From IMG/VR virus record IMGVR_UViG_3300020045_019002, positions 1 through 36,983 of that record: 36,983 nucleotides of DNA. The stretch is one strand, 5' to 3'. This document shows positions 18,655 to 26,567 of this stretch, in pieces. Source of the stretch: a virus. Lineage: Duplodnaviria > Caudoviricetes. Position 1 is the stretch's first letter. Each line of letters begins with the position of its first letter. The notes beneath the pieces were generated by a model. The model was not told the DNA's origin, did no database searches, and saw only the letters and a list, made by a program, of their open reading frames with translations. Position numbers and translations under genes: made by a program.

Positions 18655-18727
18655 TGCTGGCAGAAGGATTTGAACCCACAACCCCCTGAGTACAAAACAG
18701 GTGCTCTTCCAATTGAGCTATGCCAGC
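18655..18727 (-). tRNA. tRNA-Thr(TGT)
   Basis: GCTGGCA acceptor, GCTC/GAGC D-arm, anticodon loop TT-TGT-AC, GGTTCAAATCC T-arm. Trailer is TCA rather than CCA; mismatches in the anticodon and T stems. Confidence 0.88.
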
Positions 18728-19989: not shown

Positions 19990-20018
19990 TTGTCTGGAAA
20001 TACCGGACAACTAACTAT

Positions 20019-20146
20019 TGAGAGATTGAGGACTCGAACCTCAACCCTGCGCAAGGCCTATGGTCTTATCAGAGCAATCGAGAGTAGGATACGCCTATCT
20101 CGCAGGTCTCTTTGCCATAGGCGGAAACCCATCCGCTATGTCCCTC
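20019..20146 (-). ncRNA. tRNA-like structured element with an elongated anticodon arm
   Basis: Canonical T-arm TGAGG-TTCGAGT-CCTCA, candidate acceptor GAGGGAC/ATCTCTC, D-like GCGG/CCGC, and CTATGG/CCATAG enclosing a ~50-nt hairpin. Confidence 0.45.
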
Positions 20147-20197
20147 TTAATCCAGCCGCATACATTTGGTCTACTAACAGCTTACATTGCTCTATGC

Positions 20198-20938: not shown

Positions 20939-21661
20939 TTATTCCGCTTTCTTTAACTTAACAACAAACTCCACTTCGAGACCCAATCTAGAAATCACCT
21001 TTTCCATCTGCAATAAAGAAGTATTTCTATCTTTATCAAAAAACACGCGAAGACTTTCTTTTGACAGCCCCGTTAGTTTTTTTATTTCTTCTTTTGAATA
21101 GAATCCCAAGATGCTAGACACAAGTTTTTGCTTCCATTCTAAAGAAGATATCGCTTCTTCATCAGAAACCAAACGGCTCTTTTTCTGTACAGGCAAAACA
21201 ATTTCCCTTGCAGGATTGTTTTTTGCAAGTCCTTCCAAGACGGCCCATTGATAAACAGCGCTGAGATAATGGAGAAAGTGTCTTAATGTAAGTCCAGACA
21301 TGGGTCGATCATATCGTGTGTTCTTGTTTTTAAGATGATTTAGAGCTTTCATTATAATTTTTGGGTTTATTTCACTTAACAATAGCCCCTTTAATTCTTC
21401 TTCCCAAAATCTATAAAATCTGCATTCTCCGGAGTAAAATTTGCTTTTTTTTGCCCTTTCCAAATAACCTTTTAAAACATATGCGAACGGGGCATTAACA
21501 TATTCGCATGATTCAACTTGACTTTCATAAAGATCGGAAAATGTCTTTGCTTCTTGTAGACTTTTGAAAGTTCGATATATCTTTGGAGCTCCCTTTTTCC
21601 TTACACTCATTCGATATGTCTTTTGACCGTTTTTTCCAATTCTCTCTTCAATATGTGCCAT
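20939..21661 (-). CDS. Tyrosine-integrase N-terminal/core-binding domains fused to a C-terminal HTH, no catalytic domain, 240 aa
   Basis: MAHIEER...YRMSVRKKG...RTFKSLQEAK; TLRHFLHYLSAVYQWAVLEGLAKNNP; then IKKLTGLSKESL...NTSLLQMEKVISRLGLEV. No R-H-R-Y catalytic motifs. Confidence 0.7.
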   Translation of the reverse strand: MAHIEERIGKNGQKTYRMSVRKKGAPKIYRTFKSLQEAKTFSDLYESQVESCEYVNAPFAYVLKGYLERAKKSKFYSGECRFYRFWEEELKGLLLSEINPKIIMKALNHLKNKNTRYDRPMSGLTLRHFLHYLSAVYQWAVLEGLAKNNPAREIVLPVQKKSRLVSDEEAISSLEWKQKLVSSILGFYSKEEIKKLTGLSKESLRVFFDKDRNTSLLQMEKVISRLGLEVEFVVKLKKAE

Positions 21662-22862
21662 ATTTCTCTTTAATCTCGTTTAACGTCCTTAGTGTTTCTT
21701 CATAGTCATCCACTGAATCACCAGGCCCATAATATTCTAGGTCACCAAAAATATCTTCCAACAGAGAGATTTTTAGTTCTTTTTGTACCACCCCAGAACC
21801 CAAAAGATCTTCTTGTTCCTTCGCAAGTTCTCCTAACCCGATTCCATTTTTGTAAAACGACATTTTCTTTTTTGTCGAAATAGCGTCTTGTAGGGTCATC
21901 ACATCATAATTTGCGTCCGTATACTCCATTACAGTACAGAATTTCTTGCCAGGGTGTGTTCGCAATCCCCTTCCAAGCATTTGTGTATATAATCCCCTGC
22001 TCATCGTAGGCCGGCACATTAAAAGACATTCGATTGATGGTTCATCAAATCCTTCTGTTAAGATGTTGAAATTAATGAGAACCCGAAGGGGACCGTTCCT
22101 AAAAGAGTTAAGATAATAACTTCTTCTTTCGGGAGAAAGTGCGCCATACAAAATCTCCGCCGTAATTCCCTTTTGTTCAAATATCTTTTTTAGTTCTTTC
22201 CCATGATCAATGGAAGCAGCAAAACAGACAGTTTTTACAGGTTTTTTGAAATGGTCTATATAACTATTTACAATCAACTCGTTCCTGTTTTGTACGTTCA
22301 CAATGGCTGTTAGTTCTTTTAGATTAAAATCCTTTTTATCTGTTTTTTGTAGAATTACGTTTGTTTTAAAATGATAACCAACCGCATCACTAAGATGCCC
22401 TAATTTAATTAAATCATTTATCCCTAGTTTTATAATTGGCAACCCAAATATCGGGGACAATCTTCGTCTATCTAATCTAAAAGGAGTGGCGGTTACCCCA
22501 AGCAACTTTTTGTGCTTAATCTTTTCCAACACGGAAAGATAGCTCTTGGCTGGCGCATGATGACATTCATCAACTATAATTAAATCAACCTCTTGGTTGT
22601 GGCTTCTCCTGGATATTGTCTGTATCATTTGTGCGCGAATAAGATGGTCAGCCCCCATACGCCTAGCTGTTTTTAAAGCCTGGTCAATTAGCTCTTTTCT
22701 ATGACACAGCACAAGAGTTTTCGCGTTCATTCTTTTTGCAATTTCAGAAAAGACGACTGTTTTCCCTCCGCCTGTTGGAATAACAATCAGAGCCTTGTCT
22801 TTTGAGTTGAAATGGGTTATCGCCTTTGAAACAGCTTCTTCTTGAAATGGGTAAAGCTTCAT
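21648..22862 (-). CDS. Superfamily 2 DEAD/DEAH-box helicase, 404 aa
   Basis: Q motif LYPFQ, PTGGGKT, DECHH, TAT, LTEGFDEP, QMLGRGLR. Confidence 0.95.
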   Translation of the reverse strand: MKLYPFQEEAVSKAITHFNSKDKALIVIPTGGGKTVVFSEIAKRMNAKTLVLCHRKELIDQALKTARRMGADHLIRAQMIQTISRRSHNQEVDLIIVDECHHAPAKSYLSVLEKIKHKKLLGVTATPFRLDRRRLSPIFGLPIIKLGINDLIKLGHLSDAVGYHFKTNVILQKTDKKDFNLKELTAIVNVQNRNELIVNSYIDHFKKPVKTVCFAASIDHGKELKKIFEQKGITAEILYGALSPERRSYYLNSFRNGPLRVLINFNILTEGFDEPSIECLLMCRPTMSRGLYTQMLGRGLRTHPGKKFCTVMEYTDANYDVMTLQDAISTKKKMSFYKNGIGLGELAKEQEDLLGSGVVQKELKISLLEDIFGDLEYYGPGDSVDDYEETLRTLNEIKEKYGTY

Positions 22863-23082: not shown

Positions 23083-23406
23083 TCATTTCCTCTGGTATCT
23101 TGTTCTAAGAAGTAAAGCGGTTGTGGGATCTTTTTTAAATCGTCTAGTTAAAAGTCTAGAGATTCGGGGAAATCTTACATTGCATATCTCGGCTGAACGC
23201 CAATTACTCACTATACAACACACTTTCACTTTTCTTTCTTCTAGATTCAAAATGTAGGTCGGCTTGTGCTTATCGTTTCTCCAATGCTCACAATATTCTC
23301 CACCCACAAGGCACAATAACATAAGTGATTTTCTTAAATGTTCGCACATAACGGCCTCTATCATTTCGTGGGAAGAAAGACACTTGTTTGCTTTCTCAAT
23401 ACCCAT
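23083..23406 (-). CDS. Cys-rich hypothetical protein, 107 aa
   Basis: SD GAGGAG, start overlaps the end of TerL. Confidence 0.5.
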   Translation of the reverse strand: MGIEKANKCLSSHEMIEAVMCEHLRKSLMLLCLVGGEYCEHWRNDKHKPTYILNLEERKVKVCCIVSNWRSAEICNVRFPRISRLLTRRFKKDPTTALLLRTRYQRK

Positions 23407-25735
23407 GCTTACTCCTCATCTCCTTAAGTTTTTCTTTCGTCATCCCGCCTGGTGTATTGCCCACAAACTCAAGGGCTTGCGTTAAGTAGCGTAGGCAGTC
23501 TGAGTTGCTAACTAAAATGCCGTTTGCAAAATAACAATGATCGCTTTCGACCTCGATATCAAAAACCTCTATTTCGATGTCCAAGCGCAGCTCCGCAACT
23601 TCTTGAACATGTTGTTTGTATTGAGTATTTAGAAGTATTATAAACGGCTCCACAAAATTCGCATTTTCTTTCTTCGAAATCCATTTTTTCTCTATAACGG
23701 CCTTTCTGTTTACATGCGGAGGAGCAGTATTTTTGGTGATATGTTTTGGCGCCGTATTTTTTTTTACATTGAATGCAAATCTTGGGGATATGAAAAATAC
23801 CAAATCTAAATCTTCGAGCATGTTTTTTATGCCATTTAATGCCTTCCTCACTGCCATGCCACACTTTTGCAAATTCCATGGCTTTATAAATGCCCTTACG
23901 TGAGACTTCTTTTCGTTCTTCGGTTGACATATGCTCCCTGAGATGCTTTCTTTTTTCGATGCACTCAAGATTTTCAATCTGATTATTTCTCGAATTTTCG
24001 TCTTTATGGTGAATATGATGCCCTCTTGGGATCTTTCCATTACGCTTTGCCCAAACTGCTCTTTGTAAATAGGAATGCTTATTAGATGTGGTTGAGCCTC
24101 TTTTATAATATCTTTCATACCATCTGTAATAGTATCCGTCGAAAATGATTTGTTTTTCATCCTCGCTAATAAGAAACTCTCCCGAAACCCTAAATCTTGT
24201 ATCCTTGAGTTTGATCCAAATTGTTTCTGCCATTCATCTATTCCCTCTATAGAATATAGAGGATCATTATATCGTAGAGCATCAGAAAAAACAAGTGAAT
24301 TGCCGCTAAATATCTTGTGATTTTTTGTGCAGATTATTTCACCGTGATCAAATTTAATATTTATTAATTCCTTAACAGTATATCTGAATTTGGTAAGCAC
24401 TTTTCTTTTTCCGGTTGGCGTTAGCACGAAATCCCCCACTAAGACACCTTTTATCGGCTTTTCTCCAAATGGTGTTGCAATAAGGGTTTCTCCTATAAAA
24501 CACGAATGGCTCGACCAATCGTGCCTCGGCCTGCCCCTGAATACCTGAGCCCTGTCATCCCATTCAGCATGGTATTGCAATAAGCACTTGATCAAATATT
24601 CGCATCTCGTCTTGTCAATAAACATTCTGGGCATTGTGGATCGAACTTTTTCAATACCTTCCATAATGGAATACTTGTTTTCGAGGATCGAAAAATCAAA
24701 TCCTGCTTCTCTTGCCGTTTGAACGAAGGTCGTTCCCGTATTGTTGTGGCTTTTCCCGTCGTGGGGCGCGAAATGTTTTCCATAATTATACTTCCTTTCT
24801 CTTAGCACATTTAGATAGTGTGATAAAGCGTACCCCGTGTTCTCATAATGATCAACGATCAAGATTTCATTACCACGTATTTGAAAAAATATGATCACCA
24901 TTGCATCTGTAAAGCCTAAATCCCATACAGTATATACGAGGCGATTTTCTTCAATGGGCACATAGCCAATGCGTCCCTCTTTTTCCATTTGCTCGAGCTG
25001 CTTGCCGTAGTAAGATCCGACAACGCCGGAATCAAATGAACAAAAGTATTCTTGCCTTATCATTTCTTCGGAAATACCCTGGGAACGCTTCCTGTCGATC
25101 TCCTTTAGCTCAATTAGGCCTGTATCCTCGATGGTATATAAAGAAGCATGCCATTCGGGGTCAGTCTTGGCGTATTCATAAAGTTCATAAAAGTGATTTT
25201 TGCTTTGTGGCGTACTGTTGAAAATTGCCCACCCTTTGTTCTTAGCCAGAATAGGATCTAAAATGGCCGTCCATACGAGCGGATGTTGATAAGCGTACTC
25301 TGAAAGAACAACACCCATTGGATTTGTTCCGCGCAGAGCATCATAGTGATCAGAGCCTAGCACTTGTATAATTGAGCCGTTAAATAGCTTGAGTTTCATT
25401 TCGTTGAGCCATTTCTGTTCAAGCGCGTGGGGAGGAATAAAGTCTAGATAGCTCATTCCATCTTCAGTGATGTTATCCCAAAAGGCTTTGCGTGCCTGTG
25501 CGTAGGACGGAAAAACGTAGAAATAGACACCCTTGCGTATGCATGCTTTTTCAAGCAAGATGTTCCAGCACGTGATATCTTTACCGCCTCGCCTGTGATA
25601 GACAATAACAGCTCTTTTTTTTCCCTCGCCTGCTCTGCCATCTACGATCATATCCGAGTCTCTCATAGCCCAAATAACTGGCTCTTGGTGTGGGTATGGC
25701 TCGAATAGATGGGGCAGTTTAATGTCTATAGTCAT
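23396..25735 (-). CDS. terL: Terminase large subunit with intein (779-aa precursor, 446 aa spliced)
   Basis: Walker A HRRGGKD, LRGTNPMGVVLSEYA, FNSTP, QEYFCSF, nuclease WDLGFTD. Spliced HDWSSHS|SDCLRY matches the HDWSSHxxDxxRY motif. Confidence 0.95.
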   Translation of the reverse strand: MTIDIKLPHLFEPYPHQEPVIWAMRDSDMIVDGRAGEGKKRAVIVYHRRGGKDITCWNILLEKACIRKGVYFYVFPSYAQARKAFWDNITEDGMSYLDFIPPHALEQKWLNEMKLKLFNGSIIQVLGSDHYDALRGTNPMGVVLSEYAYQHPLVWTAILDPILAKNKGWAIFNSTPQSKNHFYELYEYAKTDPEWHASLYTIEDTGLIELKEIDRKRSQGISEEMIRQEYFCSFDSGVVGSYYGKQLEQMEKEGRIGYVPIEENRLVYTVWDLGFTDAMVIIFFQIRGNEILIVDHYENTGYALSHYLNVLRERKYNYGKHFAPHDGKSHNNTGTTFVQTAREAGFDFSILENKYSIMEGIEKVRSTMPRMFIDKTRCEYLIKCLLQYHAEWDDRAQVFRGRPRHDWSSHSCFIGETLIATPFGEKPIKGVLVGDFVLTPTGKRKVLTKFRYTVKELINIKFDHGEIICTKNHKIFSGNSLVFSDALRYNDPLYSIEGIDEWQKQFGSNSRIQDLGFRESFLLARMKNKSFSTDTITDGMKDIIKEAQPHLISIPIYKEQFGQSVMERSQEGIIFTIKTKIREIIRLKILSASKKESISGSICQPKNEKKSHVRAFIKPWNLQKCGMAVRKALNGIKNMLEDLDLVFFISPRFAFNVKKNTAPKHITKNTAPPHVNRKAVIEKKWISKKENANFVEPFIILLNTQYKQHVQEVAELRLDIEIEVFDIEVESDHCYFANGILVSNSDCLRYLTQALEFVGNTPGGMTKEKLKEMRSKHGY
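23504..24502 (-). mobile_element. Intein in the TerL nuclease domain (333 aa, residues 412-744)
   Basis: Block A CFIGETLIATPFGEKPI; block B IICTKNHKIF; blocks F/G VFDIEVESDHCYFANGILVSN followed by Ser+1. Confidence 0.93.
23559..24233 (-). CDS. HNH endonuclease with C-terminal CxxC...CSxxC zinc-finger repeats, nested out of frame inside the intein, 224 aa
   Basis: YLQRAVWAKRNGKIPRGHHIHHKDENSRNNQIENLECIEKRKHLREH; CIQC..YCSSAC; CEFC..TCSRSC; SD GAGGG 9 nt before the ATG. Confidence 0.9.
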   Translation of the reverse strand: MAETIWIKLKDTRFRVSGEFLISEDEKQIIFDGYYYRWYERYYKRGSTTSNKHSYLQRAVWAKRNGKIPRGHHIHHKDENSRNNQIENLECIEKRKHLREHMSTEERKEVSRKGIYKAMEFAKVWHGSEEGIKWHKKHARRFRFGIFHIPKICIQCKKKYGAKTYHQKYCSSACKQKGRYREKMDFEERKCEFCGAVYNTSKYSIQTTCSRSCGAALGHRNRGF

Positions 25736-25823: not shown

Positions 25824-26567
25824 ATGACTAAACATTATTTAACCGCAATCGGTTTGGCTTTAACATGTGCCTCTATCGTTAGCGGATCAGAAGTTGATCA
25901 ACTACAGCCGTCACGCTCTATTTTTACGAATAAAGAGCAAACGGCACATGTATGCTATAGCAAAGAGGACATTTCTTTTGGCAGCGTTAAGCGCGTTTCT
26001 GTGAGCACGTCTGCTCTCATGGAAAAAGAAGAGGCTAACACCATCTATTATGGTATTGATGCATCTTTCGGCGGAGTGTGGAGTACCTATGCTCTAGACT
26101 ATATCCCAGACACCACAGTTACAATTAAGCATTTCGGCCTAGGTGCAACTATCGGTCTTAGAGGTGGATATTCATGGGAGCTGTTTAGCAAGCTCGCGCT
26201 CACACCATATCTTAAGCTAAGCACTGGTTTTTTTGCCCCAGAATCCCAATTCATCAGCAGTTTTGTCAACGGTTATAATTCTGCTATTGGACTCAGGGCA
26301 TCTTACGCCTTTTTAAGTTCACTTACAGCTGGTCTTGACGTGAGTATTTCAAGGCCTCTTGGAAGATATTCTAGGATAACTTACTTAAAAAAAGGATGGA
26401 CTGGGACGGGCAAAGAAAAGTTCGGCTACTCTGCTGCGCTCCCTATCACGTATAAACCGGCTAAGTGGGATCACATCAAGTTCTTTGTTGAGCCTAAATA
26501 TGCAGGCTCTCATCTTGCTCATAAGGGATCTTTTGAGTACGGAATTGGCACAATCTACTGTTTTTAA
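25824..26567 (+). CDS. Outer-membrane beta-barrel protein (moron), 247 aa
   Basis: Signal peptide; alternating strands (GATIGLRGGYSW, LTAGLDVSIS); C-terminal FEYGIGTIYCF; SD AGGAGG; upstream TTGACG at 25769. Confidence 0.75.
   Translation: MTKHYLTAIGLALTCASIVSGSEVDQLQPSRSIFTNKEQTAHVCYSKEDISFGSVKRVSVSTSALMEKEEANTIYYGIDASFGGVWSTYALDYIPDTTVTIKHFGLGATIGLRGGYSWELFSKLALTPYLKLSTGFFAPESQFISSFVNGYNSAIGLRASYAFLSSLTAGLDVSISRPLGRYSRITYLKKGWTGTGKEKFGYSAALPITYKPAKWDHIKFFVEPKYAGSHLAHKGSFEYGIGTIYCF

Follow-up and report, generated by a model that had tools for sequence, protein, structure and literature searches.

The large terminase subunit gene (terL) of the virus record IMGVR_UViG_3300020045_019002 contains an intein whose DNA also encodes, on the same strand and in the +2 frame, a complete HNH endonuclease. 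The whole 36,983-base record was analysed (i.e. the window), and Pfam matches identified P22-like portal and RecT/YqaJ genes within it. Sequence comparisons argue that the nested HNH gene is real, under selection and probably mobile. The reading that we regard as probable is that two same-strand proteins are produced: a TerL-intein precursor, which likely splices, and an I-HmuI-like HNH enzyme that would be expressed from its own internal promoter, nick intein-less alleles so that the intein is copied in, and repress its own synthesis via a target-like operator.

The terL intein and its nested HNH gene

The intein and the gene within it were defined by the features below, with conservation given for 72 representatives of the relatives described later, selected at <70% HNH identity (aa, amino acids).

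23396..25735, minus strand: terL, terminase large subunit precursor of 779 aa (446 aa minus the intein), matching phrog_2; a 446-aa intein-less relative, P0029, is 86% identical
23504..24502, minus strand: intein of 333 aa, Cys1 to Ser-Asn with Ser+1, inserted in the TerL nuclease motif between HDWSSHS and SDCLRY
24317..24328, minus strand: intein block B, T59-K-N-H62 (TxxH in 69 of 72 representatives)
23504..23566, minus strand: intein blocks F and G, V313 to N333
23396..23503, minus strand: C-extein of 35 aa, starting Ser-Asp with the nuclease-motif Asp, from the sequence and the P0029 alignment
23559..24233, minus strand: nested HNH endonuclease gene, 224 aa, frame +2 versus the intein, with HNH_3 (aa 55-98), a helical linker and two Cys4 zinc modules

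The intein corresponds to TerL residues 412-744 (C1 at 24502, N333 at 23504, then Ser) within an open 779-aa open reading frame (ORF). Splicing blocks A (CFIGET), B (T59-x-x-H62), F (VFDIEV..HCYFANG) and G (ILVSN, followed by S) were found, and the features of a class 1 intein (i.e. Cys1, the block B TxxH, the block F Asp, a terminal Asn and Ser+1) are present. Pfam matches to Intein_splicing/Hint_2 were sub-threshold only (26.8 versus a curated cut-off of 35.8 bits). No nuclease family was matched in the intein frame by Pfam search, and the canonical arrangement with an in-frame homing endonuclease is thus absent. The intein-less allele P0029 aligned as residues 1-411 plus 412-446 with zero residues between, indicating a precise insertion. 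The intein frame is continuous in the window, halves on separate ORFs, as in split inteins, being found in relatives only. No Rfam intron match at the gathering score was obtained in the window, and the open host frame together with the intein blocks makes an intron unnecessary. An AlphaFold model of the intein frame (seven sequences) had a mean pLDDT of 39.7, low at the C-terminal blocks too, and was not used as evidence. The TerL precursor is likely to splice to a 446-aa terminase.

The HNH ORF comprises 675 nt, lies entirely within the intein and matched HNH_3 with an E-value of 6.5e-14 (Pfam); two CxxC...CxxxC modules are formed by C153/156/170/174 and C191/194/209/213. A TGA immediately precedes the ATG in the HNH frame, and the stop codon (23561-23559) is built from the Phe-Asp codons of V-F-D. 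The nuclease ORF is therefore nested between splicing blocks in another frame with the intein frame open; the third frame contains 24 stop codons. When synonymous codons were redrawn with the HNH protein fixed, the intein frame was stop-free in 1 of 300 redraws (mean of 4.1 stops), indicating that its openness is beyond chance. Pieces of the overlap (23627-23847, 23761-23911 and 24112-24262) were identical in independent public contigs, with 0 differences and 0 gaps. The window TerL is present in a 15-billion-protein collection and the window HNH is absent there.

The original prediction, made from this DNA alone, had described an intein with blocks A, B, F and G in terL, a ~225-aa middle devoid of nuclease motifs and, in a shifted frame from 24233 to 23559, a complete HNH protein with two Cys fingers and its own Shine-Dalgarno (SD) sequence and ATG, making ~675 nt doubly coding. 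Profile searches of both frames and ORF analysis bore out each of these points, with HNH_3 in the +2 frame and sub-cut-off splicing-domain matches without any nuclease in the intein frame. The placement of the HNH stop just before block F was wrong, as the stop falls inside this block. The expectation that standard annotation would miss the nuclease proved correct, both for the protein collection that holds the TerL and for four GenBank phage records that annotate only terL.

Two further features of this DNA were recorded. A 15-codon third-frame ORF (24237-24190, minus strand), whose ATG lies 5 nt after the HNH SD, overlaps the HNH start and could divert ribosomes. A weak terminator-like stem (23552-23539, minus strand) occurs right after the HNH stop within block F DNA, with 3 such stems found versus 2.3 by chance.

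Family and catalytic residues of the nuclease

An AlphaFold model of the HNH protein (19 sequences) had a pLDDT of 93 and a pTM of 0.57. The best solved relative was I-HmuI (PDB 1u3e) by profile comparison (E 9.9e-5), and this protein was also the top row in Foldseek (E 0.15) and VIA (Z 6.5, rmsd 10.9, 117 residues aligned); no Foldseek match to the HNH model was obtained at E 0.001. Residues H76, N84 and N88 are kept in 72/72 representatives and H75 and H97 in 71/72, all being intact in the window, as is the first Cys4 module, which is nearly invariant among the representatives. The HNH_3 catalytic residues and the fold place the protein with I-HmuI-like HNH enzymes, the fold match being modest. 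The protein is not EndoVII-like, as HNH_3 was the sole Pfam match at E 0.01 and the PHROG matches were HNH families. In both enzymes a long helix follows the HNH_3 catalytic core; they differ in that I-HmuI is encoded by a group I intron and the window HNH has C-terminal Cys4 zinc modules. By analogy with I-HmuI and the Mob enzymes, as presented in the accessible part of PMC2988022, we infer that the nuclease would nick DNA.

Distribution of the overprinted layout

A first scan with the HNH as query gave 60 viral loci. An open overlapping frame was present in 59 of these, 57 of which were inteins (two cut by contig ends); the non-intein loci were one methylase insertion and one GC-rich chance frame. 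The best 80 of 256 loci from an intein-side scan, which is biased since the query includes filler, were also assigned: 63 automatically and three by eye (L081, L085 and L140), the other 12 being short inteins of 125-192 aa. In L114 (2902-4050) the same overprinted intein is read under table 25 (TGA = Gly), with TGA codons used by both frames. In total 141 elements were found, of which 109 were distinct (72 in +2 and 37 in +1) after dropping duplicates and one mis-cut. L149 was dropped because its boundary had been called wrongly, and L125 lacked a start by the rule applied.

Insertion was near the TerL C-terminal nuclease motif in 69/72 representatives and at upstream sites in three, TerL identity being taken from PHROGs for five loci and otherwise read from motifs. 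The GenBank phages TJE1, Highwayman, phiCDHM19 and LS06 carry the HNH in +2, with only terL annotated. No in-frame TerL version of the HNH was found among 138 inteins scanned. None was found in 20 longer matches either, a blank that is weak evidence; these matches fell in distantly related HNH_3 domains, the majority of them within other inteins, with 13-49% query coverage and no terminase Pfam.

Three other arrangements were encountered. In L055 (2542-3165) a DNA methylase gene without an intein contains a distant HNH in another frame, resembling a ShiLan domain. A distant, different HNH occupies the P-loop intein site of TerL, being overprinted (+1) in L056 and L057 (L056:2406-4721) and located between split-intein halves in L097 and L098 (L097:1337-1885), which suggests that the layout arose independently there. 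Antisense open frames of 100-268 aa without HNH matches overlap many inteins (e.g. L004, L045, L091, L159 and L164) and probably arise simply because two sense frames are open.

Selection and mobility

The ratio of nonsynonymous to synonymous change (dN/dS) was estimated for 421 same-offset, non-independent pairs of relatives with 55-99.5% identity, the window itself being outside this sample. Values for the HNH frame were 0.11-0.13 (+1) and 0.13-0.28 (+2) as compared to 1.5-1.7 (+1) and 0.7-1.3 (+2) for the intein frame. Selection in these relatives thus acts on the HNH frame and not on the intein frame, as the proposal of an independent nuclease gene had anticipated, and is the opposite of a conservation that follows only the intein frame. 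The window HNH is 43% identical to its nearest relatives, and the intein frame 27-32%.

The intein-less P0029 (446 aa, 86% identical), which is empty at the exact site, is the sister of the window on a 33-row N-extein tree (support of 100). Labels of full, mini and empty needed 8 changes on this tree versus 9.0 when shuffled (i.e. no fewer than shuffled), and the distribution of the intein is patchy. Among the exteins that carry an intein, that of L173 is nearest (59%), but its intein is only distantly related (30% in the N-domain); L069, with a 45% identical extein, has a closer intein (52%). A metagenome scan with P0029 for a close empty allele gave one locus, 43% identical.

Predicted expression signals

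Signals for independent expression of the HNH gene were scanned using promoter matrices and an anti-SD sequence. The following were predicted just ahead of the gene.

24266..24294, minus strand: predicted sigma-70 promoter, TTGTTT (24294-24289), 17 nt, TATAAT (24271-24266), within intein-N coding DNA
24243..24247, minus strand: SD sequence GAGGG, 9 nt before the HNH ATG
24244..24262, minus strand: 8-bp hairpin predicted to pair the SD on long terL mRNA, its 5' arm cut by a predicted start at ~24259-24257
24269..24286, minus strand: target look-alike S-D-A-L-R-Y over the promoter spacer and -10 box, a candidate autorepression operator

The TTGTTT-17-TATAAT promoter lies 32 nt before the HNH ATG, is the top-scoring promoter position in the host ORF and exceeded synonymous shuffles (z 1.8, p 0.046). 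Promoters were in the top 10% of host positions in 40/57 (+2) and 8/14 (+1) elements. Under synonymous shuffling, mean z-scores were 1.47 (+2) and 1.28 (+1) versus -0.13 and -0.26 for controls (p 1e-15), indicating that the promoter signal is stronger than the protein sequence of the intein would impose. Mini-inteins were uninformative as a negative control, with 8/12 rows still in the top 2%. The SD was in the top 10% in 21/57 elements of the +2 class and 0/14 of the +1 class; the promoter lies 3-10 nt from the start in 11/14 of the latter, most of which are likely leaderless.

The 5' arm of the hairpin sits between the -10 box and the expected start. The predicted probability of an unpaired SD in the window was 0.01 on the long RNA versus 0.75 on the short RNA. 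SD accessibility was higher on the short RNA in 16 of 20 elements selected for a strong promoter and SD (p 6e-4), as compared to 52/112 controls. The predicted promoter and SD, enriched across the family, support the earlier proposal that the nuclease is translated independently.

A target look-alike over the predicted promoter

The C-extein starts S-D-C-L-R-Y, other empty alleles read A-D-A-[LM]-R-Y, and the look-alike within the intein reads S-D-A-L-R-Y. Codon-level look-alikes were in the top 10% of host windows in 30/56 (+2) and 7/13 (+1) elements, and the own site beat the sites of other elements in 17/56 of the +2 class (p 2e-5). Tracking of the host site by the copy is seen in the pairs NEACHI/DEACHI, DCLSQA/DALSQA, DSLVWA/DACVWA and ADGYFI/AAGYFI (host site/copy). 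As the look-alike is read in a non-intein frame in several clades, it is a DNA-level feature. At the codon level a homing-site-like sequence thus overlaps the predicted promoter of the nuclease, as for I-TevI. Given the homing-site-like operator over the promoter of T4 I-TevI, we regard the copy as probably an operator.

A mechanism uniting these features can be proposed. On the long terL mRNA the HNH SD would be paired in the hairpin and ribosomes would make the precursor only, the ~225-aa middle of the intein being filler that is kept stop-free and discarded with the intein. A short transcript from TTGTTT-17-TATAAT would start within the 5' arm of the hairpin and so free the SD. The nuclease would bind the DNA that encodes the D-A-L-R-Y nuclease motif of TerL and nick empty alleles, and repair would copy the intein with the HNH gene. 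Binding to the target copy over its own -10 box would then limit its own synthesis in an I-TevI-like manner. The cassette would most likely derive from an HNH gene that stood alone downstream of terL, with later decay to mini- or split inteins.

Several observations weigh against this mechanism or parts of it. The penultimate residue of the intein is Ser instead of His (SN is common to 24/72 representatives), support for the HNH fold is weak by absolute standards (Foldseek E 0.15; VIA Z 6.5, rmsd 10.9), and position 57 is Gln in the window and His in 69/72 representatives. The public contigs include the HNH start and do not span the entire overlap, and because the nearest HNH relatives are only 43% identical, dN/dS values come from relatives and not from the window. 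A third-frame ATG (24237) lies 5 nt downstream of the SD. The window promoter was not listed by a simple consensus promoter scan; for the window alone, a -10-only shuffle gave p 0.31 and the SD p 0.23. The energy of the hairpin is unremarkable against dinucleotide shuffles (z -0.37), the hairpin and operator tests were post hoc, and the p-values for the family are inflated because the elements are related. For the look-alike, own-site tracking was 0/13 in the +1 class. The nucleotide-level match is weak in the window (12/20, percentile 0.34; 17/20 in L036) and was found family-wide in only 13/57 (+2) and 1/13 (+1) elements. Remnant inteins lacking the HNH retain the D-x-L motif, and part of the D-x-L match could presumably stem from the intein's own motif after block B.

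Alternative explanations

An unlikely account, though one with an appreciable chance, is that the look-alike is a relic of HNH entry, left by cleavage at a target-like intein sequence or by a carried terL tail, and not an operator, with the HNH itself functional. The free-standing genes of L167 and L168 read D-T-I-R-Y and D-I-I-S-Y just before their ATG, remnant mini-inteins retain D-x-L-R-Y and the match is weak at the nucleotide level, all of which favour a relic; invasion of introns at target-like sequence was reportedly described by Loizos in 1994. However, the copy tracks the host site in diverged elements (DEACHI, DALSQA, DACVWA and AGYFI), overlies the promoter and occurs in different frames, and a relic under no selection would be expected to have decayed at 40% protein identity.

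Alternatively, the HNH could be made from the polycistronic terL mRNA and not from a transcript of its own, by internal initiation or by a programmed frameshift yielding a TerL-intein-HNH fusion. This was judged decidedly unlikely. The SD is also on the long mRNA but is predicted to be paired there, a TGA stands directly before the ATG in the HNH frame, offsets of both +1 and +2 occur, and the promoter signal extends beyond amino-acid constraint.

A slim outside chance was given to the HNH in this genome being an intact but inactive passenger, or acting in packaging instead of homing, in the manner of the HK97 terminase cofactor gp74. Intact catalytic residues and a 224-aa, I-HmuI-like protein argue otherwise, as do the patchy presence and the 86%-identical TerL lacking both the intein and the nested HNH. 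The His57Gln change in the window would fit a passenger, and terminase-adjacent HNH genes can aid packaging according to the portions available of PMC3592412 and PMC11855218.

An assembly artefact, in which compensating frameshifts pushed an in-frame HNH out of frame, was named in the original prediction as a way in which it could fail and was rejected as virtually impossible: the window is a metagenomic virus record and contigs cover the overlap only partly, but the covered pieces, including the HNH start, match exactly, 109 distinct inteins and four GenBank phages share the layout, and there is no in-frame TerL version in 138 inteins or 20 longer homologues.

States of the HNH family and its probable origin

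The HNH family also occurs outside contiguous inteins. Free-standing HNH genes were found just after intein-less terL in L167, L168, L052, L183 and PAE1, and before terS in BP10; in L167 a TTGACA-17-TACAAT promoter lies 7 nt before the HNH ATG. The HNH lies between split-intein halves in L003, L143, L147 and L154-L156, and also in L152, Vibrio 1.238.A and CL2 (Lactobacillus; N half only). The filler frame of split forms holds 3-8 stops, near the 5.3 expected without constraint. L063, L068, L071, L072 and L074 are partial-deletion forms, and the mini-inteins of L063, L068, L071 and L072 resemble deletion remnants of full elements.

On a quick, unrooted HNH tree (L054, L056 and L149 left out), split forms were on one side of a branch (support of 91), and +1 and free-standing forms needed 3 changes each; the tree does not show direction. 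The probable order is from free to overprinted to split or mini. The original prediction that a free-standing HNH had colonized a mini-intein is supported in that free HNH genes of the same family adjoin intein-less terL, the direction being a matter of inference on an unrooted tree.

More tentatively, with doubt slightly outweighing belief, we suggest that overprinting is a stable, selected design. In this design ~60 nt of intein DNA would double as promoter, as operator co-evolving with the host target and as SD-hiding hairpin, uncoupling the dose of nuclease from that of terminase. The free, overprinted, split and mini series in one HNH family would offer a route to natural split inteins, and many 'degenerate' TerL inteins would be mobile.

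Comparison with known systems

Out-of-frame intein nucleases are already known, and the new elements here are the HNH enzyme, the TerL host, the use of two frames and the embedded predicted control cassette. No out-of-frame HNH in TerL inteins, nor an operator within intein DNA, was found in the open-access literature, though preprint supplements may list such elements.

The closest parallels are the non-canonical inteins of actinobacteriophages, with an EndoVII-like homing endonuclease in frame 3 (Gosselin, Arsenault, Gogarten, bioRxiv 10.1101/2025.01.02.630785). The available portion of this preprint describes contiguous phage inteins with a same-strand endonuclease in a shifted frame and an open intein frame, proposes invasion by a free-standing endonuclease as their origin, considers that annotation likely misses the enzyme and includes TerL among the non-canonical hosts. 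In that portion the enzyme encoded out of frame is EndoVII-like, HNH enzymes belong to in-frame inteins, and no promoter, operator or hairpin is described, whereas the present enzyme is of the HNH_3/Cys4, I-HmuI-like type and occurs in both +1 and +2. A cyanobacterial dnaX intein with a +2-frame LAGLIDADG gene (Phillips, DeSimone, Gogarten, bioRxiv 10.64898/2026.09.14.751524) is similar, as far as the accessible text goes, in having a +2 ORF with a putative SD, omega <1 in the endonuclease frame and >1 in the intein frame, full, mini and empty alleles, and a proposed secondary invasion of a mini-intein. It differs in its chromosomal host gene and LAGLIDADG enzyme, and the same text describes no internal promoter, operator or split forms.

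The ShiLan domain (2025, PMC11855218) is, in the part available, a hidden HNH with zinc fingers in an open host frame without an intein, for which L055 is a methylase-hosted case here. That system lacks a splicing domain and has a non-essential host, whereas the HNH in the window is surrounded by intein blocks at the TerL nuclease motif. The predicted regulation resembles that given in the accessible sections of PMC2988022 for T4 I-TevI, with a homing-site-like operator over its promoter and a ribosome-binding-site (RBS) hairpin removed by an internal start, and more widely for T4 I-TevI/II/III and Aeh1 mobE, where an internal promoter cuts off an RBS-hiding hairpin and a homing-site-like operator occurs. 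Those enzymes come from introns or from free-standing genes and are driven by T4 middle or late promoters, in contrast to the predicted sigma-70-type boxes in intein-coding DNA here. Fractured genes, with a free-standing endonuclease between split inteins (Dassa et al. 2009, PMC2677866), share their layout with L003, L143, L147, L152, L154-L156, Vibrio 1.238.A and Lactobacillus CL2, which carry the present HNH family. In the sections of that paper available, the enzymes are GIY-YIG or Vsr-like and the model runs from invasion to fracture or in-frame insertion, with no contiguous overprinted state.

In a common class of phage TerL inteins the nuclease thus escapes gene calling, and these inteins are likely classed wrongly as degenerate. 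An internal promoter, a hairpin or leaderless initiation, and a candidate operator offer a candidate answer to how the hidden nuclease is expressed, and the family supplies intermediates for models of nuclease gain by inteins and of the origin of split inteins. The 86%-identical empty allele and cultured carriers (e.g. TJE1) make the steps testable.

Neighbouring genes

A helicase gene (ResIII/Helicase_C) and an integrase-SAM-like gene (20939-22862, minus strand) lie between terL and the portal gene, and the packaging genes are therefore not adjacent. Directly upstream of terL, on the opposite strand, is a 247-aa gene without a Pfam or PHROG match (25824-26567, plus strand), whose feature and structure neighbours in the Atlas are outer-membrane beta-barrels (TM 0.77); its product is possibly a lysogenic-conversion or receptor-blocking protein. 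A tRNA-Thr(TGT) is present at 18655-18727 (minus strand). A non-coding stretch at 20010-20150 (minus strand), without an ARAGORN or Rfam call, has tRNA-like acceptor and T-arm ends, a long middle and a fold z of -1.45.

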